A stretch of DNA of 64,000 bases from an uncultured Acidimicrobiales bacterium (GCA_951813325.1 OX638350.1:1901954-1965953); one strand, 5' to 3'. Shown: positions 706-18,110, numbered from the stretch's first letter. Made by a program: numbers and translations. The notes: generated by a model from the sequence alone, not told the origin.

Positions 706-1116
706 ATGACCGGACCGGAACTGTGCGTGGGCGCCGTGGTGGTACACGACGGCGCCATACTGCTCATCCGCCGGGGTAGCCCGCCGGGGGAGGGGCTGTG
801 GTCGGTGCCCGGCGGTCGGGTGCAGCGGGGAGAAACTCTGGCCGAGGCTGCCCGCCGTGAGCTGCGAGAGGAGACCTCCTTGGACGGGGAGGTGGGCGAG
901 GCCGTGGGCTGGACCGAGCTCATCGGCCGACGGCGCCACTACGTGATAGTGGATTTCTGGGTGACCGTGGCACCCGACGCGCTACCAAGGGCGGGCACCG
1001 ATGCCTCCGATGCGGCGTGGGTGGCCATCGGCGATTTAGAGAACTGGGACTTGGTGGGCGGCCTGCATCAGTTTCTGACCGACCACCAGGTGATACCTAG
1101 AGAGAAGCCCGACTAG
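706..1116 (+). CDS. NUDIX hydrolase
   Basis: Nudix box '[24 protein letters not shown]' (GX5EX7REUXEEXGU). Confidence 0.8.
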
Positions 1117-2614
1117 GAGTCGGGGCGCCGGAACCCCGTCGGGGGCGCTTCGGAGGAGGGGTGGGCTCTATGCCGAACAGGGCGGCAATATGGGGAACGC
1201 GCTCGGACAGCTTTGTGACCTCGGCCAGCAGCTCCTTGTCAGGATTCTCCGGGACACCCTGAGGCTGCACGGTTCGGCGTACCGGCGAGAACGCCACGGC
1301 AGCCAGCACCGCGATCCAGCGCTTGGTCGGCGTGTCACTGGCCAAGGCCGCGTTGGCCGCCTCGGTCAGCCGGGTGACCATGTCTTGGGGAAGGGGCACG
1401 CCGGCCTTCGGGGGACGGGAACTGAGCCTCAGGGCCCGGATCATTCGGCCGTCGGCCAGCGTGGCGGCCACCTCGGCCAGCCATCCGGCGTGCTCCCGAT
1501 CGACCCGCTCGGCGAGTTTGGCGCGCAGCTCTTCGGCCATGGCCTTGGCCTCGTCGTCGCCGGCTCCGGCCTCGGCAGCCACCACCACCGATCGAAGATC
1601 GCGCAGATCGATCTCGTCGACCTCGGCCAGTGCGGCCTCGACTCGGTCTCGCCATTCTGCGGCTCGCACCCGGGAAAGGAGTTTGCCCGCCGCTACCAGA
1701 AAGTCGTCGCCTGCCTCTTTTGAATCGGATTTCTCTTGCTCTTCGGCTTTGGGGCTGTCTGTGTCGGTTTGGACGGGGTCCTTTTCGGCATTAGCGGCGT
1801 CTGATTGGGACTTGGCCGCGTCCCTTTCGGCATTGGCGGCGTCTGATTGGGACCTGGCCGCGTCCCTTTCGGCATTGGCGGCGTCTGATTGGGACTTGGC
1901 CGCGTCCCTTTCGGCATTGGCGGCGTCTGATTGGGACTTGGCCGCGTCCTTTTCGGCATTGGCGGCGTCTGATTGGGACTTGGCCGCGTCCCTTTCGGCA
2001 TTGGCGGCGTCTGATTGGGACTTGGCCGCGTCCCTTTCGGCTTTCGCGGCGTCGCGGGCCTTCTTGCGCTGGATTTGGAGGGTCTTTTCCACCGAGCTGA
2101 TGCCGTCTCGAACCATCTTCTCGGCCACGGGCTTCTGCTCCTCGGGCAGGCTGTCTATCAACGCCTGACGGTGAGTTCGGCCGGGGCGCAGGCGCTTGGC
2201 TTTGGGGCGGTCGTCCTCGCGGCGAGGCTCCTGGCGATCACGGTCCTTTTGATCGCCTCGGCCGCGGCGATCCTGACGGCCCCTTCGGTCGTCCCGATCT
2301 CGATCCCGGCTTCCTTGCCGGTTCTTGCGGTTGGACACCAGCTGGGTGGTGACCAGCGGTTGATCCCGACCGGAGCCCAAAATCTCCAGCGTCTCGGGCA
2401 TGGGGCGCTTCTTTTTGGATTCAAAGGCCTCGATGATCTCGATACCGTCGATGTGGAACTCGGCCTCAACGGTCAACTCGTCGCCCACGCTGGCATCGAA
2501 GGCGATCAGGTCGCCGCCCATCTCGCCCTTCGGCTCTCGCGCACCGGCGGCTCTCCACGTCCAAGAGCCGTCGGGCCGCTGGCTGGTCAGCTCAATCTCA
2601 ATCCTGCGAGACAC
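1097..2614 (-). CDS. Conserved actinobacterial hypothetical protein with Arg/Asp-rich low-complexity region and 14-aa tandem repeats ([14 protein letters not shown])n
   Basis: Long ORF; structured N- and C-terminal domains with a central repeat array; no enzyme motif recognised. Confidence 0.6.
1780..2040. repeat. Intragenic 42-nt tandem repeat, ~6 near-identical copies (encodes [14 protein letters not shown] units)
   Basis: Unit 'ggcattggcggcgtctgattgggacttggccgcgtccctttc' visibly reiterated with single-nt variants. Confidence 0.85.
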
Positions 2615-2665
2615 CGGCGGTCACGCTACCGCATCAGGGCCCGAGTGCAGAACTGCAAGAACCCT

Positions 2666-3037
2666 TCAGCACCCTCCGAGTTCGGCGGCTGCGGAATGCC
2701 CGAAGCCGCCGAGCTCGACGGCAACCGCCCCCGTGGCCGGGGTGAGGTTGGTGAACACACGGGGCTGCCAGGCAAAGCTGGCGTCCACCCGAAGTACAGG
2801 ACCGCCTCCGGTTTGGTCGACGCAACCGGACAGCTTCGTCCCGTCAATTCGGATGGCATTCACCGTGCTTCGGTCACACCCCTGGCTGCCGCAACCGTCG
2901 ATGAACTTTGCCGCGGCCCTCTCGGCCCGGTCAGCCGCCAGATTGCTGTTGGTGATCAACTCGGCGTGGTCACCCAACGAGCCGGCCGTCACGGCCACCG
3001 CCAGACCCAGAGACAGCAGAACGATGGCGGTGTGCAT
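2666..3037 (-). CDS. TadE/TadG-like pilus assembly protein (N-terminal hydrophobic segment)
   Basis: Small protein with N-terminal TM segment immediately downstream of the other tadE-like genes in the same operon. Confidence 0.45.
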   Translation of the reverse strand: MHTAIVLLSLGLAVAVTAGSLGDHAELITNSNLAADRAERAAAKFIDGCGSQGCDRSTVNAIRIDGTKLSGCVDQTGGGPVLRVDASFAWQPRVFTNLTPATGAVAVELGGFGHSAAAELGGC

Positions 3038-3041
3038 CCGC

Positions 3042-3461
3042 CTAGCCCACCGGCTCGACGCTGGCGGCGACTATCCGGGTGGCTTTGAGCAGCCGGCCCA
3101 GCTCAACCGGGCAAATGACGACTGCGGCCACCGAAGGCGAAAACCTGGGATCATGGGAAGGGCGGGGCTGGGAGACCAAGCTGACATTGAAGGCGGCGTC
3201 GGTTTGGCTGCATACCCCAGCGGTGGCGGCCAAGCCGGACTGCTCCACCGCGGCAACCGCCTCAGCCCACCGAACCCGGTCCGAAGGCTCGGCACTGGCC
3301 GCGGGGGACCGGGTCAGAGTCTTGGCCGCGTTCACCGCGGCTGCTTCGGCGAACGTGGAGGTGCGATAGCGAGCCGTGCCCAGCGTCCCGGCGGCGTCGA
3401 GCACAACCACACCGAGCAGCAACCCGGGCAAAACCAACAGGAACGCGATGGCGTCGCTCAT
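3042..3461 (-). CDS. TadE/TadG-like Flp pilus assembly protein
   Basis: N-terminal hydrophobic helix 'AFLLVLPGLLLGVVVL'; position within the tad operon. Confidence 0.5.
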   Translation of the reverse strand: MSDAIAFLLVLPGLLLGVVVLDAAGTLGTARYRTSTFAEAAAVNAAKTLTRSPAASAEPSDRVRWAEAVAAVEQSGLAATAGVCSQTDAAFNVSLVSQPRPSHDPRFSPSVAAVVICPVELGRLLKATRIVAASVEPVG

Positions 3462-3471
3462 GGGAGTGCCA

Positions 3472-3873
3472 TCAACACGAGCTGGGGATGCTGAGTGCCG
3501 CTGCGCCGGCGGCCGATCGGCAGGCGACAGAGGTGGTGTGCAACGCCGATACCCGGGTATCCGACACCGCAGCGGTAACCGATACGATCAAGTTGCAGGC
3601 GTCGGCTCTCACCTCGACCGCCACCGGCTGCACCGCTAGATGCTGGATCTGGCTCAGCGCCGCTCGAGCCGCAGCCGCCTCGGCCTCTGATGGGGGAGGG
3701 GACTGGCACCGCCATCCCACCGCAGCAGCAGCCTGCGCGGCCGCGGCCGCGGCTGACTGGGCCGCAGCGTCCGCCGACAATCGAGTGATGTGGCGAACGT
3801 ACAGTCCGGTGATCAAAGCCAATAGGAGCATCAGCAGCATCGCAGTGCGCAGCACCACGAGAGAGGTGGCCAT
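3472..3873 (-). CDS. TadE-like Flp pilus assembly protein
   Basis: N-terminal hydrophobic helix then Ala-rich region; position right after the pilin-like gene in the tad operon. Confidence 0.5.
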   Translation of the reverse strand: MATSLVVLRTAMLLMLLLALITGLYVRHITRLSADAAAQSAAAAAAQAAAAVGWRCQSPPPSEAEAAAARAALSQIQHLAVQPVAVEVRADACNLIVSVTAAVSDTRVSALHTTSVACRSAAGAAALSIPSSC

Positions 3874-3879
3874 GGGCGG

Positions 3880-4047
3880 CTAGTGGTGTGTCGTGGGTTT
3901 AGCGCCGTGGATTGCGACGGCAGCGGCGTTCCTCGCAAGGCGCACTGACGCAGCCATACTTCCAGCGTACGGCAAGGAGGGGCAACGCCGCGAGGGGCGT
4001 CGATGCCTAGCAGGACACGCGCGAATAAACCCACGACACACCACTAG
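3880..4047. mobile_element. MITE-like element copy 1 (~160 bp, 22-bp perfect TIR ctagtggtgtgtcgtgggttta/taaacccacgacacaccactag, flanked by CTAG)
   Basis: Near-identical copies at 31131-31298 (same orientation, 1 mismatch) and 41901-42068 (inverted); terminal inverted repeats read directly. Confidence 0.8.
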
Positions 4048-4244
4048 CCGCAAGTACTCGTGCTCACTGTCCAGCTGCCCCCCACTGCCTCGCACAGCGT
4101 CTCGCTGGTGATCCGGGATTTGTCGATGTTGTCCCCTGTTTCAGGGGCGTTGTCGCTGAGTTGGGCGTAGACGATGATGGCCACGATGGCAGCAGCGGCG
4201 ATGCCAACCACGATCAAGATCATCTGGACGATTGCTGATTGCAT
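4044..4244 (-). CDS. Small hydrophobic membrane protein, candidate atypical Flp-type pilin
   Basis: 66 aa, TM helix, good RBS (gaggaag) right after tadC; lacks the canonical G/xxxxEY prepilin motif, so the pilin call is positional. Confidence 0.4.
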   Translation of the reverse strand: MQSAIVQMILIVVGIAAAAIVAIIVYAQLSDNAPETGDNIDKSRITSETLCEAVGGSWTVSTSTCG

Positions 4245-4277
4245 GTTTGTTCTTCCTCGGAGAAGCTGCCGATGGCC

Positions 4278-5030
4278 TCAGATCACGAAGATCACGGCAG
4301 CCATGACGACGAGACCAGCGATTCCAGCCACCAGAGTGACTGTGGTTCCGATAGCCCGGCTGAGCTGGTCGATCGCCAGGCGTCTTTCGGACTCCAAGGT
4401 CCGAACTGATCGGGACAGGGACTTGTCCAGCAAGTCCGATGACGCGGCTCCGGCCCTTTCGGCGGCCACCACCGACGCCAGCAGCGGCGCGGCGGGGGAA
4501 CCGGCGATGGCCTCGGTGACCGCGGGCAGCGGGTCTCGTCCAGCGTCCAGGGCCGCCCCAATGGCGCCCTGAGCCACGGAGAAAGCCTGGCCCGATACCT
4601 TCAGCGCGGCGTTGACCGCAGCGGCGTTGATGGGTTGGCCCGCCGAGGTCAACAGCCTCAGCTTCCGCATCCACTCGAGCATCTTCTGGTCCCGCTCACT
4701 GCGGTAGGCCGTGGCGACAAACGCCTGAATGGCGGCTGGCACCAGCCGGGGAAGCCACGTTCCGGCTATCACCGCCAGGGCCAATCCCGCGGCCCTCCCG
4801 GACATTGAAAGCCCCGTCAAACCACCGATAGCTGCCCCTGCGCCGGCCAGAAGCCAGCCTGTCAAAGAAATCCGACTGGGCGGCCATCCCATCGCAGCAG
4901 CTTGAATCGCGGTCCGGCTGTTGGTCTTGGGCGGGGTGAGCAGTAGAACGGCCACCACAGCCACCCCCGAAAACCCGGACAGCAAGATCATCGCCCCATC
5001 CGCCACGCGGGGGCCAGCACTCGGGCGCAC
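4278..5030 (-). CDS. tadC: Tad pilus assembly membrane protein TadC (T2SS-F domain)
   Basis: Polytopic membrane protein with GspF-like cytoplasmic domain; operon position. Confidence 0.7.
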   Translation of the reverse strand: MRPSAGPRVADGAMILLSGFSGVAVVAVLLLTPPKTNSRTAIQAAAMGWPPSRISLTGWLLAGAGAAIGGLTGLSMSGRAAGLALAVIAGTWLPRLVPAAIQAFVATAYRSERDQKMLEWMRKLRLLTSAGQPINAAAVNAALKVSGQAFSVAQGAIGAALDAGRDPLPAVTEAIAGSPAAPLLASVVAAERAGAASSDLLDKSLSRSVRTLESERRLAIDQLSRAIGTTVTLVAGIAGLVVMAAVIFVI

Positions 5031-5803
5031 AGCGCGGCGGTCAGCACCGCGACAAGAAGCATCAATTGCTGCCCCACCGGCGACGTCAGCCAGCGCCCCA
5101 CGTCTTTGGCAGCAAATCCGGCAATGGCCAGCATGCCGACGGCCATTGCCACAGTGACCGCGACTTGGGGCATGAGCGCGGCCACGTAGCGGTGGAAGTG
5201 GCGGGCAGTCTCGGCCGCCTCGGTGGCTTCATCAGCCAGCACGCCGGCCAAGCCCACCCACTGCGAACCACCCCGGAATGCCTCAGCCAGCACGGTGGCC
5301 AGCATCTCGGCAATCGGCCGCCCGATAGTGGCGGAAAAGCGGTTGGCCGCCTCCACAAGGCCGCCGGTCTCGCATTCAGAGGCCATCAGCCGGGCAGCGG
5401 CCCCGACCCGGCCGGGAATCAACGGGGCGGCTTGACGTACAGCTTCCACCACGGTGGGGGCCACCAATGCCTGGTTGGCCAATCCGTTGGTCAGCTGGGC
5501 AAGTTCGTCAGCCTCCCGCAGACTGCGAGAAGACCGGATCTGAACCGCCATGGCCCACACGCCTACGCCGCTCAGTACCATCACAGCCACACCGGTGGTC
5601 GCTCCCACCAGCACGAGCCCCGCGGTGAATACCGAAGCCGCCACAACGGCGGCCAGAAGCGGGCCGGCTGGAAGTGAGCGTCGCTGGGCCAGAACCAGGC
5701 TGCCCATCAGTAGAACTGAGGGACTCCCGGCCGACGTCGGCCACCAGACGATGGCCATCAATGCGAGCCCAGCGGCCAAGGCCACCGCGACCTGCGCACT
5801 CAC
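4988..5803 (-). CDS. tadB: Tad pilus assembly membrane protein TadB (T2SS-F domain)
   Basis: T2SS-F-like membrane protein; GTG start overlaps tadA stop (GTGA). Confidence 0.65.
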   Translation of the reverse strand: MSAQVAVALAAGLALMAIVWWPTSAGSPSVLLMGSLVLAQRRSLPAGPLLAAVVAASVFTAGLVLVGATTGVAVMVLSGVGVWAMAVQIRSSRSLREADELAQLTNGLANQALVAPTVVEAVRQAAPLIPGRVGAAARLMASECETGGLVEAANRFSATIGRPIAEMLATVLAEAFRGGSQWVGLAGVLADEATEAAETARHFHRYVAALMPQVAVTVAMAVGMLAIAGFAAKDVGRWLTSPVGQQLMLLVAVLTAALCARVLAPAWRMGR

Positions 5804-7428
5804 AGGATCCTCGCTGAAGAGGCCGCGCCCGATGAGAACGAAGCTGTCGACCCCCTGTCGGCGATCGCGTGCAGGTCCTCAGCTGAACAGGGATCGATCC
5901 CTACCGATTGGTACAACCGCTCGACCTGGCCGACTGGCCGGCTCATGGGAGTGGCCCACCGCTGGCCGGGGCGAAGCGTCCACAGGCACTCGGTGTCGAT
6001 GGTGTCATTGCGGTCGTCGTAGCTGACGATCTGGGTGACATCGGAGATCACCCGCTCTCCGTGCTCGTTGCGGCCCAGCCACACCAGCAGATGGACGGCG
6101 ATAGCGGTCTGCTGGCGGGCGAACCGGGGATCAGCACCCTCGCTGCACGCGTATGACAGCAGTTTGGCCAGCACCCCGGTCCCAGGCTGGCTGTGCAGGG
6201 TGACCAGGCAGCCGTTGAGCCCGCTGCTCATGGCGTCGAGCAGCGCGAGGGTGCCTTCGCCCCTGGTTTCGCCGATAACCAGCTTGGAGGAGTTGGCCCG
6301 CTTGGCGTCGCGGATGTGGTCGCTCATGGTGAGCTTGCCCACGCCGTCGTTGTTGGCATCCCGGGTGAGGCGCTCGTAGCTGTTGAAGTGGATGCCGTAC
6401 TGGGCCAACCGGAGCTCGGGGGTGTCCTCGATGGTGTCGATCCTCTCCGAGCCATCGACGGAGGCCAAGAGGGCCTGGCAGAGCGTCGTCTTGCCGCCCC
6501 CCATGGCCGCGGCAACCACGATGTTGGCCCGGATCGGTCCCGACACCGCTCCGAGGAGGATCTTCTGCAAACGCGGCCCGGCCACATGGAGGTCGTTCAA
6601 GGTGGCCTTTCCGGCCATATTCGACCTGAGCACCATGGTAGGCGGATGGCACATGAACGCCTCGGCATGGAGCCGCCACCGGTCGCCGAGTCGGATGTCC
6701 AGGCGACTGTCGAGCACATCGAATCGTTGAGGCTGTCCGCCGGAGAAGCTGGCCAGGTGCCGGGCTGTCTCGATCAGCTCGTCGTTGGACGAGAACGGTG
6801 AGTTGCGACGCTCCCGCTGACCCTCCGCTCGGTGGACGATCATGCACTCTCCCCCTCGAATCTGAAACTCCTCAACCCCGGTTTCATCCAGCAGGTCGGC
6901 TAGTCGGGTTTGAGCAGCTTGCGATGCCGACCACAGATGGGTCTCGCGGTCGAGCGGATCGAGCCGGCGGGGCGCGACCGCGGTCCACGCCAGCCTGCGC
7001 CCGAGCCGGTGCAGTCGGCGAAGGTGGTTTCGAGCCGGTTCGGGCGGCACCCAGAGGGTGAAGACCCTTTGGCGGCGCGAGCGTCCCGTGTCCGGCTGGT
7101 CGTCCGACACGACCACCGACACAATCGGGGTCGAGCGGCGCGATCCGGTGTCCATCCGCAGCAAGGAGCGCACGTCGGTGCTGTCGGAGATGGTGATCCA
7201 TAGCACCGCAGCGGCTGATGCGACCGCCGATTCCAGACGGAGCTCCGGCTCGTCGTCGCGCATAGACAGCACCGTGGGATGGCCGGCGGCCGACGCCTGG
7301 TCTACCTCAGCGGGAGAAGTGGCCAAGACCACGCCAGGGGCAGTGCTGGAGATCCCGTCCAACACCCCGTTCATCACCTGCTCAACAGCCTTGGCGTCGA
7401 GCCAGCGGTCTCCAATAGCCAAAAGCAT
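5800..7428 (-). CDS. tadA: Tad secretion ATPase TadA/CpaF with ~150-aa N-terminal extension
   Basis: Walker A 'AAAMGGGKTTLCQAL', VirB11/CpaF-like C-terminal half; start chosen at the ATG (7428) that overlaps the upstream gene stop (ATGA). The ORF track shows a longer 612-aa frame. Confidence 0.85.
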   Translation of the reverse strand: MLLAIGDRWLDAKAVEQVMNGVLDGISSTAPGVVLATSPAEVDQASAAGHPTVLSMRDDEPELRLESAVASAAAVLWITISDSTDVRSLLRMDTGSRRSTPIVSVVVSDDQPDTGRSRRQRVFTLWVPPEPARNHLRRLHRLGRRLAWTAVAPRRLDPLDRETHLWSASQAAQTRLADLLDETGVEEFQIRGGECMIVHRAEGQRERRNSPFSSNDELIETARHLASFSGGQPQRFDVLDSRLDIRLGDRWRLHAEAFMCHPPTMVLRSNMAGKATLNDLHVAGPRLQKILLGAVSGPIRANIVVAAAMGGGKTTLCQALLASVDGSERIDTIEDTPELRLAQYGIHFNSYERLTRDANNDGVGKLTMSDHIRDAKRANSSKLVIGETRGEGTLALLDAMSSGLNGCLVTLHSQPGTGVLAKLLSYACSEGADPRFARQQTAIAVHLLVWLGRNEHGERVISDVTQIVSYDDRNDTIDTECLWTLRPGQRWATPMSRPVGQVERLYQSVGIDPCSAEDLHAIADRGSTASFSSGAASSARIL

Positions 7429-8132
7429 CAGCTGGCCGTCGGGTCTTCGCGATCGCCGACAAGGGCGCCAGCGGTAGATCTGGGGTCGCATGGGGGCCAA
7501 CCGGCAGGCGGCGACTCCCAAATCCACCACTGCTGATCTGACAGCACGGCGGCCAGTTCGGAGCCGGCCTCTACGGTCACACTCGCTGTGGCGCCTTCGC
7601 CGGCCACCGACACCAAAGTCACAAGAGCGGCCGCACATCCCCCGGGCGAGGGAGAGAATACGGCTCGGTCACCTGCGACTGGACCGGGATCAGACCACAT
7701 CTCATCGCTCACCGTGACACTCATCAGCGTTGTCGTGCGGCGGTCATCACCGCTTTGGCGGCTGCGCAGCATCATGGGAGAGATCAGGGTTCCCTCGGGC
7801 ACGTCAACGGCCGCCACGGTTTCGGCCAGATCTAATGGATGGACAAAAAGAGCTGCCAAGTGGGCGGGAATGTGGACAACGGAGTGACCGCCCGGTGGAT
7901 GTCCCTCAGGCCAACGCTGGGCCGCGGCCACCACGGGCACTTCCACCGCAGCATCGCCGCCGCGGGACAACGCAGCAATCGCCGCGGCGGTGGCGACCAA
8001 GACTATGGCCGCGGCCAGCAAGCGCCACCGCAAGCTCACCGGCCAGGAGGTGGGCGACCACTGTTCGCTGCTGGGGCGGCTCACCACAGGGTTGCCTGCG
8101 GGCCGAGATACCCAGTCGGCTCGCGGAACCAA
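7428..8132 (-). CDS. CpaB/RcpC-like Flp pilus assembly protein (N-terminal TM, SAF-like domain)
   Basis: TM anchor 'LLAAAIVLVATAAAIAAL' followed by a soluble domain; translationally coupled to tadA. Confidence 0.45.
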   Translation of the reverse strand: MVPRADWVSRPAGNPVVSRPSSEQWSPTSWPVSLRWRLLAAAIVLVATAAAIAALSRGGDAAVEVPVVAAAQRWPEGHPPGGHSVVHIPAHLAALFVHPLDLAETVAAVDVPEGTLISPMMLRSRQSGDDRRTTTLMSVTVSDEMWSDPGPVAGDRAVFSPSPGGCAAALVTLVSVAGEGATASVTVEAGSELAAVLSDQQWWIWESPPAGWPPCDPRSTAGALVGDREDPTAS

Positions 8133-9424
8133 GACAGGTCAGAGGCGAGCACCTCGGTGTGCCGGCCACCCTGCCCAGAGGTGTACTTGACCTGCAACTG
8201 CCATTCCCAGAAGCCGCGGCGAGGGATCGCCCAGCGGCATCTTCCGTAGCGGTCCTCCCAGTCGGCGGTCAAAGAGAGCACCCTGTCGGCCGGAATGGTC
8301 CACGGTGGCAGATCAGCGGGCGAGCACCAGACAACCGGGGGGTCTGTGCGGGGAAAGGCCGCTTGGAACCACTGTTTGCGCTGCACGTCCAACCGATCCC
8401 ACAATGCGGCGGCTTGCTGAGCAGGTCCGGCGGCCGCCGAACTGCCGGGAGATCGGAGTTTGGCCAGATCAGAAGGCTCGTAGGGGAGCAGCTCTCGGAA
8501 CAACACGCCCACGGCTTTCGCCGTCCACCGGCAACCGCTCGCCGCGGCATCCACCACGTCGAGCGACTGCCCCGGCCGCTGAGCAATCCAATGTCGGACC
8601 GGGCTGCCAGCCGCCGAGGCCGCCGTCAAGAAGATCTGCCCTCCGGGAGTCTCCGGGTGGTGGTAGCCCGTGAACCCGCGTTCATAGGGAACGATCGACT
8701 CCCATCGCAGACTGCTCAGCAGCCTCTGGCGGGTGGCATCGCTCCACGCGGTGGTGCACACCTTGGGCTCGGGATTCGGATCGGACTCCCAAGGGCAGTT
8801 GCCGGGAATGCGGTCGGTCATGCACGGGGGCAGACAACCGCCGTTGGCGCACGGATTGGAGACGGGGGTGGGCTTGGGTTTCGGGGTGGCAGATGGCGTC
8901 GATTCCGGGGTCGGGGTTGCCGGGGTCGGGGTTGCCGGAGTCGAAGTCGGAGTCGAAGTCGGAGTCGCCGGGGGAGGGCTCTGTTGGCGGTGGTCGTGGT
9001 TGACGGGCACCCGCCGTTGCCCCGACCACCGGTAGTTGATATTCCGATGGCCGTTCCATCTGGTCCAAGTGCCTGGGCCAGTAGGCCGGGGCGTGCTGTC
9101 GTGGGGTCCGTGGGCGCAGTTGTCCGTATTCCGGCACCGACTCTTCGCCGCCGTGGCAATCACGGTTATTCCGCACTGGTCAATGATCTCCACCGTGCAG
9201 TTTGCAGGCACGCGGGCGCGGTAGTGGGTCCAGTAGTTGACGTGGGTCCACGTCTCTGTGCATCCCCGCACGCCGGAAGGGCACCTCCCAGCCCCGCTGG
9301 CGGGAACATCCGTGGTTTTGTCGTGGGCCAGAGCGGGCCGGGAGTCGGGGACCGAAAGCGCAATGCCGACAATGAGCAACACGGCAAGCGCCATCCCGAT
9401 CGCCGTCCGCAGTACCGCCGTCAT
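8081..9424 (-). CDS. Secreted Cys-rich protein with Pro/Thr-rich linker; unknown function, tad-operon associated
   Basis: Internal start at ATG 9424 (MTAVLRTAIGMALAVLLIVGIALS signal/TM) overlapping the upstream stop (ATGA); PT-repeat linker; many Cys. Confidence 0.5.
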   Translation of the reverse strand: MTAVLRTAIGMALAVLLIVGIALSVPDSRPALAHDKTTDVPASGAGRCPSGVRGCTETWTHVNYWTHYRARVPANCTVEIIDQCGITVIATAAKSRCRNTDNCAHGPHDSTPRPTGPGTWTRWNGHRNINYRWSGQRRVPVNHDHRQQSPPPATPTSTPTSTPATPTPATPTPESTPSATPKPKPTPVSNPCANGGCLPPCMTDRIPGNCPWESDPNPEPKVCTTAWSDATRQRLLSSLRWESIVPYERGFTGYHHPETPGGQIFLTAASAAGSPVRHWIAQRPGQSLDVVDAAASGCRWTAKAVGVLFRELLPYEPSDLAKLRSPGSSAAAGPAQQAAALWDRLDVQRKQWFQAAFPRTDPPVVWCSPADLPPWTIPADRVLSLTADWEDRYGRCRWAIPRRGFWEWQLQVKYTSGQGGRHTEVLASDLSWFREPTGYLGPQATLW

Positions 9425-10536
9425 CGGATCGCCTCGAAAGCCCGATAGCCACAGCCGGTGGCTGAATCGCTGGGCGGACGGCTTTCCCGTCCGGTCTGGC
9501 GGGCCCACACATAGCCCAAGAACGCGTGATAGCAGTCGTGGGGGCTGTCGGGGAGGCCGATACCGGCGCTCTCCGCGGCGTGAGCCTCCACGATTCCGAT
9601 GAGGGGTTCCCAGCACGAGGGAAGCGGGTTGCCGGATTCTTCCGAGTCGGTCGGATACCTCGGGTTGGGGTTGGCGGCCACAACCTCTGCGCAGCGATGC
9701 GCCAGCCAACCCGGCGGGCGGGGTGCTGCCGGGTCGTAGCCGACCGACGGGCACACGGCCAAGGGGCGGGCACGGGCATCTCCCTGGAGGGAGTGGGCCG
9801 TTACTGCATCGGCCACGCAGGCCACACCGTCATCGGTCCACCAGTACCGGGCAAAGATCTCGAAGAGGTGGGCGAGTCCGCCCAGACAGGAGTACACGCT
9901 TTGGGCGGACACTGCCCCGTACACCGCATCAGACGTGCTGAGAGCTGGTTCGACGTGGCGGCGAGCGCACCGCTGCACCCAGGAGCGGGATTCTGGGGTG
10001 TTCTCGATGTTCCCGTCCCAATGCCCCTGGAGATCCCTGACTTCATCCAGAGCCGGGTGGTCGACTGGCACCTTGAGGATGACGACTTTGCGGTTGCCGT
10101 CCCAGGTATACACATCGTCGCCGAACTGGTGGAACGTGCTGTTTTGGGCAGCCTCCAGGAGCGAGGCCGCTTCTGCCGGGACCACTTTGTCGGCCTCAGC
10201 GGACACGGCCTTCGGGGTCGCAGGCGGCGGCACGGGCGCAACGCCAGAGCCATTCCGATTTGCCCCAGCATTTGCCAGTGGAACCTCAACGGCATCTGGG
10301 ACCGCGGCCAACGAGGTGGCCGGGACAGGTGTGAGGGCAAGAGTCGGTTCGGATCGGTTGGCGGGCAGCCCCGCGGCGCCGGGCAGACGTGTGCCCGGGT
10401 CGACGGAGAACTCGCGGGGCACACCGCTGGGTGCAGTATTCGGCTCCGAACTCGACCCATTGGAGGCAGGACCGCAGCCCGTGTTGATCAGCAAGAGTGG
10501 GACAACCAAGAATTTGGCTCGCCAAAGGGCACCCAT
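9421..10536 (-). CDS. Putative secreted/lipoprotein, Cys-rich; unknown function, first gene of the tad operon
   Basis: Signal peptide 'FLVVPLLLINTGCG' with possible lipobox Cys; AT-rich promoter-like region upstream (10560-10680). Confidence 0.5.
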   Translation of the reverse strand: MGALWRAKFLVVPLLLINTGCGPASNGSSSEPNTAPSGVPREFSVDPGTRLPGAAGLPANRSEPTLALTPVPATSLAAVPDAVEVPLANAGANRNGSGVAPVPPPATPKAVSAEADKVVPAEAASLLEAAQNSTFHQFGDDVYTWDGNRKVVILKVPVDHPALDEVRDLQGHWDGNIENTPESRSWVQRCARRHVEPALSTSDAVYGAVSAQSVYSCLGGLAHLFEIFARYWWTDDGVACVADAVTAHSLQGDARARPLAVCPSVGYDPAAPRPPGWLAHRCAEVVAANPNPRYPTDSEESGNPLPSCWEPLIGIVEAHAAESAGIGLPDSPHDCYHAFLGYVWARQTGRESRPPSDSATGCGYRAFEAIR

Positions 10537-10674
10537 TTGCCCTCCGTTCGAAATGTCTCGATGGGGGCCTATGAGGCCGATAATCCTGGCTGCCGCACCA
10601 GTGGAGGTGACTTTACTTCATATCCACTCATATGTCTATAGCTAATTTTGATAATTATCATTCCCAACACCCAA

Positions 10675-10698
10675 GAAAAGCGTTGAGAATACATGAAC
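10675..10698. repeat. Left copy of an 18-bp direct repeat (aagcgttgagaatacatg) bounding a ~7.4-kb island
   Basis: Exact 18-nt match with 18089-18110; AT-rich motif in a high-GC background. Confidence 0.7.
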
Positions 10699-11216
10699 CG
10701 TGCTGTCGCTATCCCCGATGGGTTCCAGCGGGCTCAGCGGCTTCGGGATGTTCGTCGGTTTCGCCACTTTCTCACTGGTCATGGGGGTCGGCTCCATCAC
10801 GCGCCGACACTCAAACTAGTTAGAGCAACCGCCCCACTGCTCTGAAATCGCGGTCCTCACACCGTGGAGCGCGTCGTCTCTTGGGCGCGCAATACGGAAA
10901 TCTGCTGCCTGCTGCCTCTAGCTGAACAGCACCCAGGCGACCACGAGGAAGCTCGCCGCCTGGAACATCGTCTCTAAGTTGTCTAGCGCAAACCCGAGCA
11001 CCTGCATTTGCCTGCCTCTAGCGCTGGATGGGTGTTACAGCACCATTGTCCCCAACGCTGTGACAGTTCCCCGATGCCAGTGGCAGCGCCCTTCGAGGAC
11101 CGCGCCGCGGTCCAGAGGTGGATTTGGCGGCTGCTGGAATACTGCGTGCGACGTAGCGGGCACCCGCTGACGGCCTTGGTGAGGGGGTGCCCAGAGACGA
11201 GCAGGATTGACGGACC

Positions 11217-12706
11217 ATGGTCGAGTTGCGGGACTACCAGGTGAAGGCCATAGCCGACATCAACGCACTTTGGCCGTCTGCCAGATCGATCATCCTGCAG
11301 ATGGCGACCGGCGCCGGCAAGACGATCACGGCCTCGGCTTTGCTCAGGGGGAGTTCGAGTCCATTCCCAACCTTGTGGTCGGGTGGATGGTGCATACGGG
11401 CCACCTGCGGAAACAGGCAGCCGAGGCTTTAGATCTGCTCGGTGTGCAATGGGTTGACTGGTCCACTGTTCGTGCCTCACAGCGCCGTTGGGAACCAGGG
11501 CAAGCGCATTGCTTCGGCTCCACGATGTCCCTGCCGCCTGGCCCTGCCACCCGCGACGCATTGCTGATCGTGGACGAATGCCATCGCTCGGCGAGCGACA
11601 CCTACGCCAAGCAGATGAACCGGCGCGGCGGCAGGAACCGTCACCGCATATGGGGCCGGTGCCTGGGGCTGTCGGCGACTCCGGCCCGATACGGCTGGCC
11701 CGATGCAATCAGCCGCTCTCAGGGGTTGTTCGCGCGGCAGTGGGATGCGATGGTCTGCGGCCCGTCGCCCGCCGAACTGGTCGAGGCGGGCCACCTGGCC
11801 GACATTGTGGTGAAGTCCATAGACGAAGCGGGCGGCGACTGGGAGGTGCTGAGACCTGACCCGATGCGCGCCAGCGGGTTCTCGTCGGCATCGGAACAGA
11901 GATGGGAGCGCACGCTGTCGGTCGACGCGGCTGCGGCCATCATCAAGCGCGTGGAGCCGCGCCCGACCATTTGGTTCTGCGCGCCAACAGCGGCAGCAGC
12001 TCAAGTGGTGAAGCTGCTGGGGCGCAGCAGCGCCAAGATCCTCGCCGAAACGTCCTACAGCGAACGTCTGGACCTCTTCGACGCGTTCAGGGAAGGCAGC
12101 ATCGAGCACCTGGTGACCGTGCGGGCACTGCTGGAGGGTACCGATATCCCCGCAGCGAAGCGGATCGTCCAGCTAGCTCCGTCGCGCTCTCGGGTGCTGC
12201 TGTCTCAGGCGGCAGGCCGCGGAAGCCGACCGCCAGGCGTGATGGAGCTATGCGACTTCTCCCAAAGCTGGTCCCACATCGGAGCGCACCCGCTAGACGA
12301 CGTGCCATGGCACCTCTCCCTCGATCCGACTGCCGACTCTGAGCATGTCCATTCGGCCACAGCGCGCACCCGCACCTGCCCCACGCCAGGCTGCGGAACA
12401 GTCATATCGCCGCGCACGCAGCGCCTCTGCCCCACATGCAATTTTGAGGTAGTCCGCCGATGTACGGCGTGCTGGCAGCCCATGTCCGAGGACGCTGAGG
12501 ACGGCACTCACCGCCGCTGCCGCAAATGCGCCGCCGACGAGCGCTCCCTGCACACTGAATGGGCACGGCGCCACGGAACCGAGCCGCTGCCAGATCGCGA
12601 CATCACCGAGGATTCCGGCGGCGAGACGATCGCCGCTAGTTTGGAGGCCCTTGAATCTCTCCGAGCGGCGGCAGCGGTCCTTGAACAGCACACAGGACAG
12701 AGATGA
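11217..12706 (+). pseudogene. SF2 DEAD/DEAH-box helicase with C-terminal double Zn-ribbon, disrupted by a frameshift at a G5 run (~11346-11350)
   Basis: N-terminal motifs 'DYQ' and Walker A 'MATGAGKT' lie in frame 0 (ORF 11217-11432). DEAH 'DECH', 'SAT', 'QAAGRGSR' and a CxxC..CxxC tail lie in the frame of ORF 11207-12706. One extra G would restore ...ALLRGEFESIP... Confidence 0.7.
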
Positions 12707-12894
12707 CTCGCCAAACCGACTCTAAGAGAGGGGAGCAGCGCGTCTTGACCCAGGTCCGACTGCCGGTCGATCTTTGGGAGCAGCTCCGCTACGAGGCCGA
12801 CCAGCGGGACGTGTCGATGAATTTCCTGGTCGTGCGCGCCATCACCCGGTACCTGCCGACCTTGACCCCAGTGGAGGATTTCGTCGATGGCTGA
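12703..12894 (+). CDS. Ribbon-helix-helix (CopG/Arc/ParD-like) DNA-binding protein
   Basis: 'RVLTQVRLPVDLWEQLRYEADQRDVSMNFLVVRAI' RHH pattern; ATG overlaps helicase stop (ATGA). Confidence 0.5.
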   Translation: MTRQTDSKRGEQRVLTQVRLPVDLWEQLRYEADQRDVSMNFLVVRAITRYLPTLTPVEDFVDG

Positions 12895-12927
12895 CGTGCG
12901 CCGACACCGGGTGAATGCCGCGATCTG

Positions 12928-13113
12928 ATGCCCGGAGACCGCTTGGTGTCCCGCTGGCAGAACGGCAAGCGGGTGGCCATCCGAGAGAAGCGCAAAATCG
13001 TGGTGGCAGAGGTGAAGCCGTTGAACGGGAGGACACTCGTCGAACTGGACACAGGCGAGCAGTTCAACTGCCCGTCGGGGTTGATGTTCGGCGTGGACAG
13101 GGAAACGCCATGA
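12928..13113 (+). CDS. Small hypothetical protein
   Basis: ORF track only; basic N-terminus, no recognisable domain. Confidence 0.25.
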   Translation: MPGDRLVSRWQNGKRVAIREKRKIVVAEVKPLNGRTLVELDTGEQFNCPSGLMFGVDRETP

Positions 13114-13250
13114 GCAAACCGCTGGTCAGAGCATCCATCTCACGGGCGGCGCGCTGGTAGTTGAGCCCGAGGACGAGAACCCTCGCCGCCAGTACGCGGG
13201 AACACCACGAGGGAGGAATGCAGCCTTCGGCCAGTGGATGCTCGACACGT

Positions 13251-14711
13251 TCAGTATTTGTGCCATTGGTCGCCGTGAGGAGGTCGGGTACACCTTTTTT
13301 TGCTCTTGACGCCGATGTGCTGACAGCGGCCTGTGCTCGCCGCAGATGGTGGCGGTGCTATCGGCTTGATCTGGTCTGGCAAGTCGGAATCGAACGAATT
13401 GGGAGGCAGCGGGGGGACGCCGGCCATCTGCGACAGGCCAGCGCAATGGGACGCGCGGTATTCGATCCGGTCCGCCAGCTTCCGAATCACCTCGCTGCCA
13501 GCGAATTCAGCGGAAAGCGACTGGAGCGCCTGGTCTAAGGCAGATGGAGTCTGCCTGGCCATGTCCTCTGCCCTGGCAACGGCCTCCTCGCCGTCGCAAC
13601 CCATCGACTCCGCCGTCTCGTGCCATGCCGAATGCCTGTCGGCTTTGGCCACCGTGTACTTCTTCCCGATCTTCATGGCCAGCTTCGTCCTGTTGACCGA
13701 ATGCCAGTCAGGCTCGTAGGGGAGCACAGAGGTGATGTCGTACAGGGGGGCGAACCGCACCGTGCCCCCCCTCAACAGGAAAGAATAGTTCTTGGCGTGG
13801 GCATCGGTCCCGACGATGATCCAGTTGTAAATCAGAGCATCCAGGAACCTGTGGGCATCGCTGTCGGGTTGGGAGCTGTGCTTTCTGATCGACTCCGCGA
13901 TCTGTTGCGGCGAGGGGCCGCCGTCGCCTTGGTATTTGTCGTCGGGGTGGACCCCCAGTGCCTGGCACATGTCCTCTTGGTGGATTCTGGCCGTTTGCCC
14001 GTCCGCGCCAGCAAAGCGGTCGAAGCGACTGATGACGATGCTCTGGATCGGCCCGAAGCTGGCTATCTGGGTTTGAACCGCCAGCAGCCCCAGGTTCGAT
14101 GCTGTTTGCAGGCATACATGCTCATTCAACGCCTGGTCCGGCAAGTCCGGGTCATTCATCGTCGGCTTGATGATGTGCGTGCTCGGCTCCGCACCCATTG
14201 GAATTCCGTACTTCCCCCCAGAGAACACGACGGCCGTTTTCGCTTGAGCCCCAGAGAGGGAGAAACGCCCAAAGTTGCTGCTTTCTGGCCCGTGCCAAGT
14301 CGTTCTGTGGTCCCTGAGGCTCTTGATCAGAGTGACGAGCCGCTCCTCCGTCAGCCAGTCAACGCTGCCTCCTCGCCCCATCAGGCCACCGACTTCATCT
14401 GCTGAGCAGAACTGCACAGCGCCAGCGCAATCATGCCCCACTGGGCTGGCCAGTATCGCTATCGCGCTGCTGCCCTTGATGCCGAACTTGCGTCGCCACT
14501 CTCTCCGCACTTCCAGGTTGTCGGGCAACAGACCCTCCAGCCAGGAGTCAACATCGTGCTGGCCCGCCACAAGCGGAATGCTCACGGAGAGCGGGGTGGA
14601 GAGCGGGTCGGCCAGGTACTCGTCAAAGTAGGAGAACGTAGCTCGGCCCGCACGACCTCCGACTGCTGCGCCTGCGGGCTTGCCATGCACGATGACTTCA
14701 AGACGGGTCAT
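13251..14711 (-). CDS. hipA: HipA-family serine/threonine kinase toxin
   Basis: HipA N-terminal domain, 'SLSGAQAK' and catalytic 'GTDAHAKNYSFLL' motifs. Confidence 0.85.
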   Translation of the reverse strand: MTRLEVIVHGKPAGAAVGGRAGRATFSYFDEYLADPLSTPLSVSIPLVAGQHDVDSWLEGLLPDNLEVRREWRRKFGIKGSSAIAILASPVGHDCAGAVQFCSADEVGGLMGRGGSVDWLTEERLVTLIKSLRDHRTTWHGPESSNFGRFSLSGAQAKTAVVFSGGKYGIPMGAEPSTHIIKPTMNDPDLPDQALNEHVCLQTASNLGLLAVQTQIASFGPIQSIVISRFDRFAGADGQTARIHQEDMCQALGVHPDDKYQGDGGPSPQQIAESIRKHSSQPDSDAHRFLDALIYNWIIVGTDAHAKNYSFLLRGGTVRFAPLYDITSVLPYEPDWHSVNRTKLAMKIGKKYTVAKADRHSAWHETAESMGCDGEEAVARAEDMARQTPSALDQALQSLSAEFAGSEVIRKLADRIEYRASHCAGLSQMAGVPPLPPNSFDSDLPDQIKPIAPPPSAASTGRCQHIGVKSKKRCTRPPHGDQWHKY

Positions 14712-14997
14712 CTGGGCCCTTTGCGAATTGGTCCAGGTGGTCGTCCAGCTGGAACCCAGATCGGTCTATCGGGTGTATGGCTAGGTCGCAGTCAAGAGCC
14801 TTCAGCAGCTTCAGCAGCGTGGATGCCTTGAGGTCGGCCCTTGCAGACTCGACCGCGGAAATTTGCGGGCGGGAAACGCCGGACCTGTCTGACAGCTCTG
14901 CCTGATTCCACCCCAACTCCTTCCGCGCCTGCCTGAGGGCAGCGCCGAGCCGAGCCGCAGAACTAAGCCCAAGTTGCACACGACGAACAGGTGTCAT
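14698..14997 (-). CDS. hipB: HipB-like XRE-family HTH antitoxin
   Basis: HTH 'LRQARKELGWNQAELSDRSGVSRPQISAVE'; overlaps hipA start by 14 nt. Confidence 0.8.
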   Translation of the reverse strand: MTPVRRVQLGLSSAARLGAALRQARKELGWNQAELSDRSGVSRPQISAVESARADLKASTLLKLLKALDCDLAIHPIDRSGFQLDDHLDQFAKGPDDPS

Positions 14998-15197
14998 TGC
15001 TGTTCCTGCCCCCTTTGTCCCCTAAGGACTACATTTCACCATTCAACATGTTTTGTAGTCTGCACATTACAATACTGTCTGAACCGCAGAATGTAAAGAG
15101 AAAGCTACAACAGCGGCTTTGCCGCGCTCACCCTGTTCGTGCGAGATTGCCCGAGCCTGCTCTCTTGATTGCCCCGACAACAGCCGGGTACCCGCAA

Positions 15198-15380
15198 TCA
15201 CCTCGTCAGCCTCTTCCCGCTCAGCGCCAAAACCAGCCCGCACACGGCATTCTCCAAGCGGGCGTTAAATTCCTGGCCTTCTTCAGTTTCCTCGCCCTTC
15301 AACGGGATGTTGCAACTGTCCCGGTCCCACTGACCCACGATCACCTCTAGATCTTCAGGGTCTATTTTCAACTCGAACAT
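15198..15380 (-). CDS. Small acidic hypothetical protein (60 aa, MFELKIDPEDLEVIVGQWDRD...)
   Basis: Internal ATG of ORF 15198-15821 located in a lower-GC patch; speculative. Confidence 0.2.
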   Translation of the reverse strand: MFELKIDPEDLEVIVGQWDRDSCNIPLKGEETEEGQEFNARLENAVCGLVLALSGKRLTR

Positions 15381-15871
15381 TGTCCTCCTCCTTCGGTCAG
15401 GGCGGCTTCCCGCCATTGTCCCGACCGATCCCCCCACCACTCCGTCTCCCGACCCCTTTGCCGTCTCCGAGCCTCCGCCGCGGCTTTGCCCGCCGGACCA
15501 GATCGGCGTGGACGGCGACGGCGACGGGAAGATCGACGCCTGCCAGGACAGAGACGAAGAAACCGCCGAGCTGCTCGACGCCGGAGCGGGTCCCGGGACA
15601 CGACAGCGAGCACCCGCCATCCACCCCAGAGCCCGTCGAGCCCGGGAACCGCACCGTGTGGACCATAGACGCGGCGACGGGCGCGCCGGTCGTGTCGCGG
15701 CTGTCGCCGCAGGGCTCGACGATACTGGCGGGAACTCAGCCCGTCGACTACATACCCGCTGCCGACCCGGTGTGTTGCGTCTGACTTCGCGCGACGGTTT
15801 CCCGGTTTTTTCAGGCCGCATGTGGCAGGGTTGAGTCGCAGGCCAAGAATGTCGCCGTCGAGGCCGAGAGG

Positions 15872-17647: not shown

Positions 17648-18030
17648 AAGCTCCGCCACTTTCGACCATCTTGAGTCGCCACCTCGACTTCGAGCCCGCG
17701 GTCCAGCTTGAGGCCCTTGTCGTTCACGCGCACACCCCACTCCCCGTTGTCCAGCCGGGCGGTGGATCCATGCCAGAGGGCCATTCCAACACGGTAGATG
17801 CGGGCGCGGACCTCTTCGCCTGACGCCCTCTGAGCGACGCGTCGTGGACGCCGCCAGCAGCGCTGTGTCGAAGCAATCACAAGCACTCCGCTGTTATCCC
17901 AGGTCAGCGGCTCGCGCGCCGCCATCGTTTGACCGCTCGTGGACACCTGGTGGACAGGCTCCAAAACTGATGTGTGCTGCATCCTCACCTGAGTCGGCTG
18001 TAGTCCCCTGCTGCCGGGCTCTTCGCACAT
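17593..18030 (-). CDS. Hypothetical protein
   Basis: ORF track only. Confidence 0.25.
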   Translation of the reverse strand: MCEEPGSRGLQPTQVRMQHTSVLEPVHQVSTSGQTMAAREPLTWDNSGVLVIASTQRCWRRPRRVAQRASGEEVRARIYRVGMALWHGSTARLDNGEWGVRVNDKGLKLDRGLEVEVATQDGRKWRSFYHVVATDRFGALCAGER

Positions 18031-18088
18031 CCGAAACCGCGTTCAGAAGAGGAAAGGCCCGGGCCGCTGATGACTGCCGTAACGCCCG

Positions 18089-18110
18089 AGAGAAGCGTTG
18101 AGAATACATG
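18089..18110. repeat. Right copy of the 18-bp direct repeat (aagcgttgagaatacatg)
   Basis: Exact match to 10677-10694. Confidence 0.7.

Follow-up and report, generated by a model that had tools for sequence, protein, structure and literature searches.

A two-protein module with a matched, variable cassette at the head of a divergent Tad-type operon in sponge-associated Acidimicrobiia

The window analysed here, a stretch of 64,000 nucleotides (nt) from an uncultured Acidimicrobiales bacterium (GCA_951813325.1 OX638350.1:1901954-1965953), carries on its minus strand one tightly packed string of genes running from about 10640 to 2666. This string is a very divergent Tad-type locus. It encodes, in order, a putative lipoprotein (A), a putative exported protein (B), a third protein (C), TadA, a TadB-like and a TadC-like protein, a Flp-like pilin and three pseudopilin-like proteins. 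A (371 amino acids, aa; 9421-10536) and B (447 aa; 8081-9424) are the first two genes, and their open reading frames (ORFs) were verified at these coordinates. The main feature of the locus, absent from an earlier, sequence-only reading of the same DNA, is that A and the N-terminal domain of B (B-N) form a matched, exchangeable cassette placed before a constant C-terminal domain (B-C). Our preferred interpretation, held tentatively and with slightly less than even confidence, is that A and B make up a bipartite module at the outer side of the membrane, encoded in a secretin-less Tad/Flp (type IVc) pilus operon, and that B is a pilus-associated, adhesin-like protein. The observations behind it are the membership of A and B in the operon, their domain architecture, their strict co-inheritance with the Tad genes, the one-to-one co-variation of A with B-N and the incongruence between cassette classes and the tree of the machine. 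The binding of A to B, their exposure at the cell surface and a ligand for B-C are predictions from sequence.

A matched cassette before a constant domain

Alignment of the B proteins shows two N-terminal variants over one shared C-terminal domain, and the lipoprotein encoded upstream of B in locus L003 is unrelated to A. When the proteins at the A position and the N-terminal regions of B were clustered by BLAST, each set independently, the two partitions were identical. Classes 1 to 4 hold 15 (including the window), 8, 8 and 1 loci, or 13, 8, 8 and 1 once two duplicate records are removed. A and B-N thus fall into at least four matched classes, paired one to one in about 30 distinct loci. Profile comparison identifies classes 1 and 3 as distant homologues (probability 96% and E 4e-9 for A, 95% and 2e-8 for B-N), and class 2 as unrelated for both A and B-N.

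The history of the machine itself was followed with a neighbour-joining tree of TadA, TadB and TadC (200 bootstraps). On this tree the class-1 loci are basal and paraphyletic, and classes 2 and 3 are both split between two positions. None of the 200 bootstraps recovered either class 2 or class 3 as monophyletic, and a mixed clade of six class-2 and two class-1 loci has 99.5% support. Because the cassette classes conflict with the TadABC tree, the cassette is taken to be exchangeable. The cassette proteins of separated clades are also closer to each other than the trend within class 1 would give, the class-3 A proteins being 72-82% identical against about 57% expected, an excess that could come in part from rate differences between classes. 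All classes share the flanks of the cassette, namely a promoter and a leader of about 75 nt upstream and B-C downstream, and the simplest reading is that the cassette has been replaced by recombination between these conserved flanks.

Co-inheritance with the tad genes

Searches of 5.8 billion proteins returned 47 homologues of A and 40 of B, none with Pfam domains. Those with a name come only from Candidatus Poriferisocius and from Acidimicrobiia metagenome-assembled genomes (MAGs), the rest being from unnamed MAGs. The window TadA, compared with one genome per GTDB species, identified 33 loci whose TadA is 80-91% identical, from Acidimicrobiia, Poriferisocius, 'Sva0996' or unnamed MAGs. The organism of the window is a Candidatus Poriferisocius-type sponge symbiont, Candidatus Poriferisocius being placed in the Actinomycetota, class Acidimicrobiia, and all of the sequences used are from uncultured MAGs.

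The tblastn searches found B-C, C, TadA, TadB, TadC, the pilin, the three pseudopilins and a downstream gene for a 505-aa protein wherever the contig reaches. By ORF extraction, the gene next upstream of B is lipoprotein-like in each of the 26 intact loci, and in one further locus (L008) A and an interrupted B were found by tblastn, giving 27 of 27 loci with enough upstream sequence. The sequence-only reading had staked its proposal on co-occurrence with tad genes in other genomes, and in each of these 27 species-representative loci the lipoprotein and B do stand directly before C and TadA. The genes outside vary, some loci being flanked on one side by GatCAB or SLT and others by MPAB/MMPL/ICL; as the flanks differ between loci, the conserved unit is the operon itself.

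The order of the B-C protein, C and TadA is kept even in a distant clade of higher GC content (L040, L042, L043 and L044), in which TadA is 56% and B-C about 25% identical to those of the window. A Cys-rich lipoprotein is encoded upstream in three of these four loci (L040, L042 and L044). Squalene-synthase genes adjoin L040 and L042, which suggests that the clade is the sponge-associated UBA5794 group, a group reported to have cpaB, cpaC and cpaF but not cpaE (PMC12008989). A metagenome scan with a narrower alignment of B-C gave four loci only.

Within class 1, the median dN/dS (ratio of nonsynonymous to synonymous substitution rates) is 0.16-0.18 for A and for both halves of B, with dS near saturation. 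The values for C, TadB, TadC and the pseudopilins are similar (about 0.17), and that for TadA is 0.08. On these ratios A and B are judged to be under purifying selection. The proportion of GC at third codon positions in A and B (0.74-0.77) is similar to that of the adjoining genes.

The proteins A and B

Both proteins belong to no described family and constitute two novel ones: neither A nor B has a match in Pfam, NCBIfam or PDB, and when profiles of A, B and C were compared with PDB sequences, the only matches were of low complexity or due to chance. One of the two has a confidently predicted fold with no neighbour in the PDB.

The N-terminus of A is MGALWRAKFLVVPLLLINTGC. Cys21, the cysteine of the lipobox, is kept by at least 90% of 26 homologues, in the contexts ...[AT]GC or A[AG]C. 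A therefore has what defines a bacterial lipoprotein, a signal peptide that ends in a lipobox with an invariant Cys, and lipidation is predicted on this basis. Proteins at the A position carry lipobox-like motifs in every class. Cys21 is followed by a low-complexity, flexible linker of about 100 aa and then by a C-terminal domain with eight invariant Cys (residues ~120-371), modelled as an all-helical, disulfide-rich domain of novel type. The only recognisable domain in any A-position protein is a PASTA domain in the class-4 lipoprotein (L029:6965-7885; E 1e-8, with 35.3 bits where the cut-off is 23.2), and it points to peptidoglycan.

B starts with a hydrophobic segment, either a signal peptide or a signal anchor (residues 1-23, 9356-9424), with a mean hydropathy of 2.9 over 15 residues and a helix at residues 3-23 in the AlphaFold2 model; the predicted cleavage site lies between ALA and HD at residues 31-35. 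Export by the Sec pathway is thus predicted. The Cys/His-rich B-N (residues ~34-145, 8990-9322), of class 1 in the window, is modelled as a beta-sandwich resembling immunoglobulin or FN3 domains. A linker follows (residues 146-217, 8774-8989) with 21 Pro and 13 Thr in 72 residues, short tandem repeats at 8905-8967 and a four-Cys mini-motif, NPCANGGCxPPCxTDxIxGNCPWE. The whole protein has 14 Cys and 20 Trp. The sequence-only reading had described A as signal- or lipoprotein-like and B as having a signal peptide, a PT-rich linker and many Cys, and both descriptions are borne out. Leaving out the lipid-modified Cys of A, the Cys count is even in all exported proteins of the operon, a pattern that fits disulfide bonding.

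The constant B-C (residues 218-447, 8084-8773) is Trp-rich and occurs in every related locus that reaches that far. Its motifs are RWESIVPY...HHPEVPGG...GCxW...LLPY...CRWxIPRRGFWxW...SWFR. Across the wider B-C family the positions that never vary hold Trp, Cys, Gly, Pro and Phe, which look structural or ligand-binding and less so catalytic. The model of B has a mean pLDDT (predicted local distance difference test score) of 66. B-C is modelled as mixed alpha/beta, and comparison of this model with the PDB gave no fold match. There was no Pfam match in B to the beta-propeller of PilY1/PilC and no propeller among the fold matches, the B-C model being of moderate confidence.

In class-1 B-N a His comes directly after the predicted cleavage site, and further His are conserved in WTHxNxWTH, GHGPH, NGH and HxH. 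This cluster may be a metal site; the pattern is not kept in classes 2 and 3. A copper site of the kind found in lytic polysaccharide monooxygenases, CopC or PmoD (a histidine brace) had been suggested by the His after cleavage and by weak matches to PmoD/CrdA, and was dropped as a family feature since the His is not conserved across classes.

Junctions, promoter and leader

The genes at the head of the operon overlap at every junction, and the overlaps were counted across the species-level loci. A and B overlap in an ATGA at 9421-9424, and a 4-nt overlap is kept in 14 of 14 class-1 loci. B and C share 7 nt (GTGGTGA; kept in 28 of 30 loci), the GTG start of C at 8087 having been set by homology. 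C and TadA share a single nt within TGATG at 7426-7430 (28 of 32), and TadA and TadB share GTGA at 5800-5803 (31 of 32). The successive ATGA overlaps described earlier are thus correctly placed, but ATGA itself is found only at 9421-9424, the sites at the C/TadA and TadA/TadB junctions being TGATG and GTGA. Short overlaps between genes are frequent in high-GC operons. They therefore support co-transcription and not stoichiometric expression, so that the stoichiometric co-expression proposed from them does not follow.

That A and B form an operon with the tad genes is upheld by the conserved junctions and by a single conserved promoter and leader upstream of A. The promoter-like site (TAGACA, 17 nt, TAAAGT) at 10638-10610 is the sole sigma-70-like match on the minus strand within 2400-11300, and the pattern T(A/T)GACA ... 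TAnAGT is kept at the -35 and -10 positions in loci of all cassette classes. No terminator-like site was found on the minus strand between A, B and C; the single one lies at 3455-3442, at the junction of the first two pseudopilin genes (psp1/psp2) and far downstream of A-B-C.

The 5' leader of about 75 nt (10537-10609) is common to classes 1-4, as seen in the equivalent regions of L001-L037, and forms two small hairpins, CUGGN...NCCAG and GGCC...GGCC, ahead of a GGAGGG ribosome-binding site. RNAalifold gives 16 pairs, four of them with compensatory changes, and the CUGGN...NCCAG hairpin shows such changes. A C-rich stretch of the leader could pair with the ribosome-binding site (GGAGGG/GGAAGGG), and it changes from CCCCC to CCCUU where the site gains an A. 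The leader may be a translational control element; a search of Rfam with the conserved leader returned no family.

Gene C, the Tad core and the pilins

C (219 aa; 7428-8087) has an N-terminal membrane anchor and an extracytoplasmic domain. Five of six family members show weak similarity to SAF (PF08666; best E 0.0019, under the curated cut-off), and the window protein shows none at E<=0.1. In the scan of the ten operon proteins, C had no Pfam or NCBIfam match and no RcpC domain was detected. Its designation as cpaB-like is plausible from the sequence.

TadA (5800-7428) is a CpaF-type ATPase that matches Pfam T2SSE (E 9.7e-15; 54.5 bits against a cut-off of 24.9). Its best NCBIfam match is to TIGR03819 at 131.7 bits, below the equivalog cut-off of 373, and it is about 30% identical to annotated CpaF proteins, including plasmid-borne ones. 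The protein has an N-terminal extension of about 170-260 aa (6640-7428 in the window), with no Pfam match in residues 1-263. A tadZ/cpaE gene is missing from the interval between A and the pseudopilins, both in the window and in the related loci, and the extension may take over a TadZ-like role. The locus agrees in this with a report that sponge-associated Acidimicrobiia have lost cpaE (PMC12008989). The next gene (4988-5803) encodes a polytopic membrane protein with no Pfam match that is called TadB-like from its position, membrane character and conservation. The TadC-like platform protein (4278-5030, start codon uncertain) has a marginal match to Pfam T2SSF (E 8e-6; 26.3 bits against a cut-off of 25.2).

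The Flp-like major pilin (66 aa; 4044-4244) has two C-terminal Cys and no match to the Flp family of Pfam. In every locus the start codon, read as M or V, immediately precedes QSAIVQMILIVVGIAAAAIV, and in some an in-frame stop lies a few codons further upstream, so that the protein opens straight at MQSAIVQMILIV. A leader, a Gly at -1 and EY are all lacking, and hence the G/xxxxEY pattern expected of Flp pilins. The three pseudopilin-like genes (3472-3873, 3042-3461 and 2666-3037) encode hydrophobic, TadE-like N-termini with no Pfam matches, and a leader peptide is missing from these proteins too, both in the window and in L001-L040. No prepilin peptidase (TadV/CpaA) is encoded in the operon; no search for an A24 peptidase was made in the remainder of the 64-kb window or in the genome. 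It would be unusual for a type IV filament system to have pilins independent of a prepilin peptidase.

Neither A nor B has similarity to the secretin RcpA/CpaC, to RcpB or to TadD or TPR-lipoprotein domains, and the locus contains no secretin and no TadD. The earlier placement of the genes in a Gram-positive-type setting that lacks RcpA and TadD therefore agrees both with the gene content and with the monoderm actinobacterial class to which the organism belongs.

How A and B may work, and what else they could be

If our preferred interpretation is correct, A would be a membrane-tethered holder, its lipid anchor and flexible linker of about 100 residues carrying the disulfide-rich helical domain. 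This domain would bind B-N as a matched pair and hold B at the cell surface. The constant B-C would be the working end, acting with the SAF/CpaB-like C, with the pilus or with the wall that the pilus crosses, and B would be a pilus-associated, adhesin-like surface component and not a substitute for a secretin. As B has a Sec signal of its own, there seems to be no need in a monoderm for the machine to act in the manner of type II secretion.

Several observations weigh against this interpretation. The co-variation of A with B-N can stem from simple linkage within one recombining block, and with dN/dS of about 0.17 there is no signal of diversifying selection within class 1. The most conserved motif of B-C (residues 242-277, RWESIVPY...HHPEVPGG...FLTAAS) is modelled at low confidence in a protein model that is itself moderate, which makes the missing fold match for B-C weak evidence. 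The A-B binding, the surface location and the link to the pilus are predictions from sequence and from models of the monomers. Furthermore, parts of the module are found away from tad. A B-C profile run against 1.84 billion representative proteins gave 36 clusters at E<=1e-3, in which B-C is always at the extreme C-terminus of proteins of 124-1526 aa, some of them with cadherin-like or Calx-beta domains. The B-C proteins located away from tad are a short one in L041 and Cys-rich ones of 1100-1180 aa in L045-L047 (L045:1775-5077, L046:7070-10615 and L047:5836-9342). In L047 a lipoprotein gene (4745-5839) overlaps by 4 nt the gene for the 1168-aa protein that ends in B-C. In L005, a distant homologue of A precedes a 1481-aa FN3-like protein whose N-terminus matches B-N (E 4e-12) and which has no B-C, and this A-like/B-N-like pair has no tad gene within about 12 kb of contig. 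The lipoprotein and its cognate N-domain are thus a portable pairing unit separable from B-C, and B-C is a constant C-terminal module whose sole conserved genomic partner is this Tad-type operon. With B-C on proteins away from tad and an A/B-N pair lacking tad, the module could be a general surface-display device that is merely co-transcribed. The proposal in the sequence-only reading that A and B are lineage-specific pilus-associated components stands as regards their constant position at the head of the tad operon and needs qualifying in that the proteins are not exclusive to pili. The roles it offered, those of an adhesin, a tip or a cell-wall channel, are hypotheses.

Taken to its end, the idea of a co-transcribed display device makes the lipoprotein and B a general surface-display or adhesin unit that shares a promoter with the machine and has no mechanistic link to the pilus. 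The pairs in L005 and L047 and the lone B-C proteins in L041, L045 and L046 agree with such a passenger, which we nevertheless consider improbable: the position at the head of the operon and the overlaps into C and TadA are kept in about 30 species and in the clade with 56% identical TadA, despite differing flanks, and such persistence would be unusual for an unrelated passenger. Somewhat better placed, though still unlikely, is an envelope collar or wall-crossing scaffold, in which A and B, with C, would anchor the machine to peptidoglycan, guide the pilus and replace RcpA, RcpB and TadD. In tad and cpa loci, rcpC-rcpA-rcpB and cpaB-cpaC-cpaD sit upstream of the ATPase gene, and the position of A-B-C mirrors this arrangement; A is a predicted lipoprotein, as are TadD and CpaD. 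Support also comes from the peptidoglycan-binding PASTA domain in L029, from the Trp richness that B-C shares with many wall- or glycan-binding modules, from a small SLT-type lytic transglycosylase whose gene immediately precedes A in L002 and L006, and from the passage of the pilus through a thick monoderm wall being an open question (PMC6916266). However, swapping between unrelated classes would not be expected of a structural collar, nor would a collar domain at the end of adhesin-like proteins of 1100-1500 aa encoded elsewhere. The long flexible linkers suit tethers more than a rigid conduit, neither the window nor the other loci have the SLT gene, and the lack of any similarity of A and B to secretins, TadD or RcpB rules out a substitution for secretin or TadD by homology.

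The cassette classes invite a further explanation, in which B-N on one cell, possibly on or near the pilus, would bind the cognate A on another cell of the same type, so that the class would set the specificity of pilus-mediated contact between symbionts. Strict pairing of the classes, their patchy distribution on the TadABC tree with monophyly in 0/200 bootstraps, cassettes less diverged than the backbone between clades, a leader and a B-C that could act as recombination arms and two extracytoplasmic partners on long linkers are all in its favour. Anchoring of B by A on the same cell is nevertheless a simpler account of the pairing, the dN/dS of about 0.17 lacks a diversifying signal within a class, and the L005 and L047 pairs accompany giant proteins that resemble ordinary adhesins; such recognition in trans is therefore, by a shade, still more improbable than a passenger. 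We would give a little more credence, while regarding it as doubtful, to a polymorphic A/B-N pair coupled to the pilus whose class would decide which partner cells or which host surface the machine with its leaderless pilins engages, exchange between symbiont lineages taking place through recombination at the leader and B-C. If true, it would amount to pilus-linked recognition of self or partner in uncultured Gram-positive sponge symbionts, using families with no known relatives. Least probable of those considered is a tip adhesin like PilY1/PilC, in which B-C would dock on a tip complex of pseudopilins and present B-N, A being a chaperone or holder before loading. PilY1 has a variable N-terminal part and a conserved C-terminal part and is encoded within its pilus locus. 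B has an analogous architecture, and in all loci B-C and the three pseudopilin-like genes are inherited together, but B shows no similarity to PilY1/PilC in sequence or fold, adjoins C and TadA and not the pseudopilins, and has an ordinary Sec-type N-terminus, and the B-C paralogues on giant proteins would have to be loaded on the same tip. A toxin-immunity system was ruled out, the variable part being N-terminal, the partner an upstream lipoprotein and toxin domains being absent.

Neighbouring genes

The gene for the 505-aa, highly charged protein (1097-2614, minus strand) follows the pseudopilins in every related locus. It matches no Pfam or other family, contains a tandem repeat at 1778-2053 (6.6 copies of a 42-nt unit encoding 14 aa) and is of uncertain membership in the operon.

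Directly upstream of the tad promoter lies a 7.4-kb segment of lower GC content (10666-18110), bounded by imperfect 30-nt direct repeats (10666-10695 and 18081-18110; 27/30 identical). It carries a frameshifted ResIII/Helicase_C gene (11217-12706), genes for an RHH protein (12703-12894) and a HipA kinase (13251-14711), and ORFs of unknown function. L001, L003 and L004 do not have the segment; in them the MPAB_Lcp_cat/MMPL/ICL genes found from 19428 onward in the window abut the operon. The segment is probably an integrated island. The helicase gene was considered as the 'helicase neighbourhood' of TIGR03819; this was ruled out, since the gene is frameshifted and lies inside a repeat-bounded island absent from the other loci examined.

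Only the two most basal Poriferisocius-type loci, at L002:8282-8713 and L006:9501-9842, have the gene for the small secreted SLT/SLT_3 lytic-transglycosylase-like protein next to A on its upstream side; it was not found elsewhere among the loci or in the window. The pair in L005 (165-6253) adjoins SIR2_2 genes and an integrase.

Relation to known systems

Monoderm Tad pili are viewed as the simplest type IV filament machines, and their extramembrane parts, meaning whatever crosses or anchors to the wall and the adhesins, are an open question (PMC6916266). The lineage described here always adds three extracytoplasmic proteins before the ATPase gene, two of them from families with no known relatives. 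Full-text literature on the genus Poriferisocius yielded only a passing mention, in a coral-microbiome study, and that on sponge Acidimicrobiia together with 'pilus' only lists of pilus genes. The organisms are uncultured, the family is taxonomically very narrow and its function is predicted. A cassette beside a constant domain leads to testable hypotheses about binding and gives a handle on how abundant sponge symbionts attach and recognise surfaces or partners.

As a functional analogy only, the module recalls cohesin and dockerin, where a tethered scaffold meets a cognate domain at one end of varied cargo and specificity types exist. There is no sequence relationship, and the A and B genes, unlike those of cohesin-dockerin systems, are adjacent and translationally coupled, with the binding of A to B being a prediction. 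Like B, PilY1/PilC of type IVa pili is a large exported protein encoded in a pilus locus, variable towards the N-terminus and conserved towards the C-terminus; B differs in having no homology or fold match to it, in its position in the locus and in its cognate lipoprotein partner.

The RcpC(CpaB)-RcpA-RcpB/TadD proteins of diderms are likewise extracytoplasmic and encoded just upstream of the ATPase gene, with one SAF-like member (here C, from its weak SAF similarity) and one lipoprotein (here A). RcpC forms a periplasmic conduit ring (PMC12307814). The present system lacks an outer membrane and a secretin, its A and B have no match among the Rcp and TadD models, and, in contrast to structural components of a ring, A and B-N are variable and swappable.

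The closest comparison is with monoderm Tad/Flp (type IVc) loci of actinobacteria such as Bifidobacterium breve and Micrococcus luteus and with the neighbourhood of TIGR03819 ('TadA family conjugal transfer-associated ATPase'). As in these, one operon without a secretin encodes one ATPase of CpaF/TadA type, two membrane proteins that are putatively of platform type, a pilin of very small size and, as minor pilins, two to three TadE-like proteins (PMC6916266). Monoderm Tad machines are also reported to be without RcpB, RcpC and TadD, leaving wall crossing unexplained (PMC6916266), and many actinobacterial systems stay 'generic' in systematic surveys (PMC6668835). The window locus departs from these in a TadA that falls far under the TIGR03819 cut-off (131.7 against 373), has about 30% identity to CpaF and carries an extra N-terminal region, in the absence of tadZ/cpaE, in a pilin and pseudopilins lacking both a leader and the G/xxxxEY Flp motif, and in the SAF-like protein and the A-B pair added at the front of the operon. 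From its sequence, the core probably works like the monoderm type IVc pili, to which it is distantly related, with the A-B pair as an addition of its own lineage.

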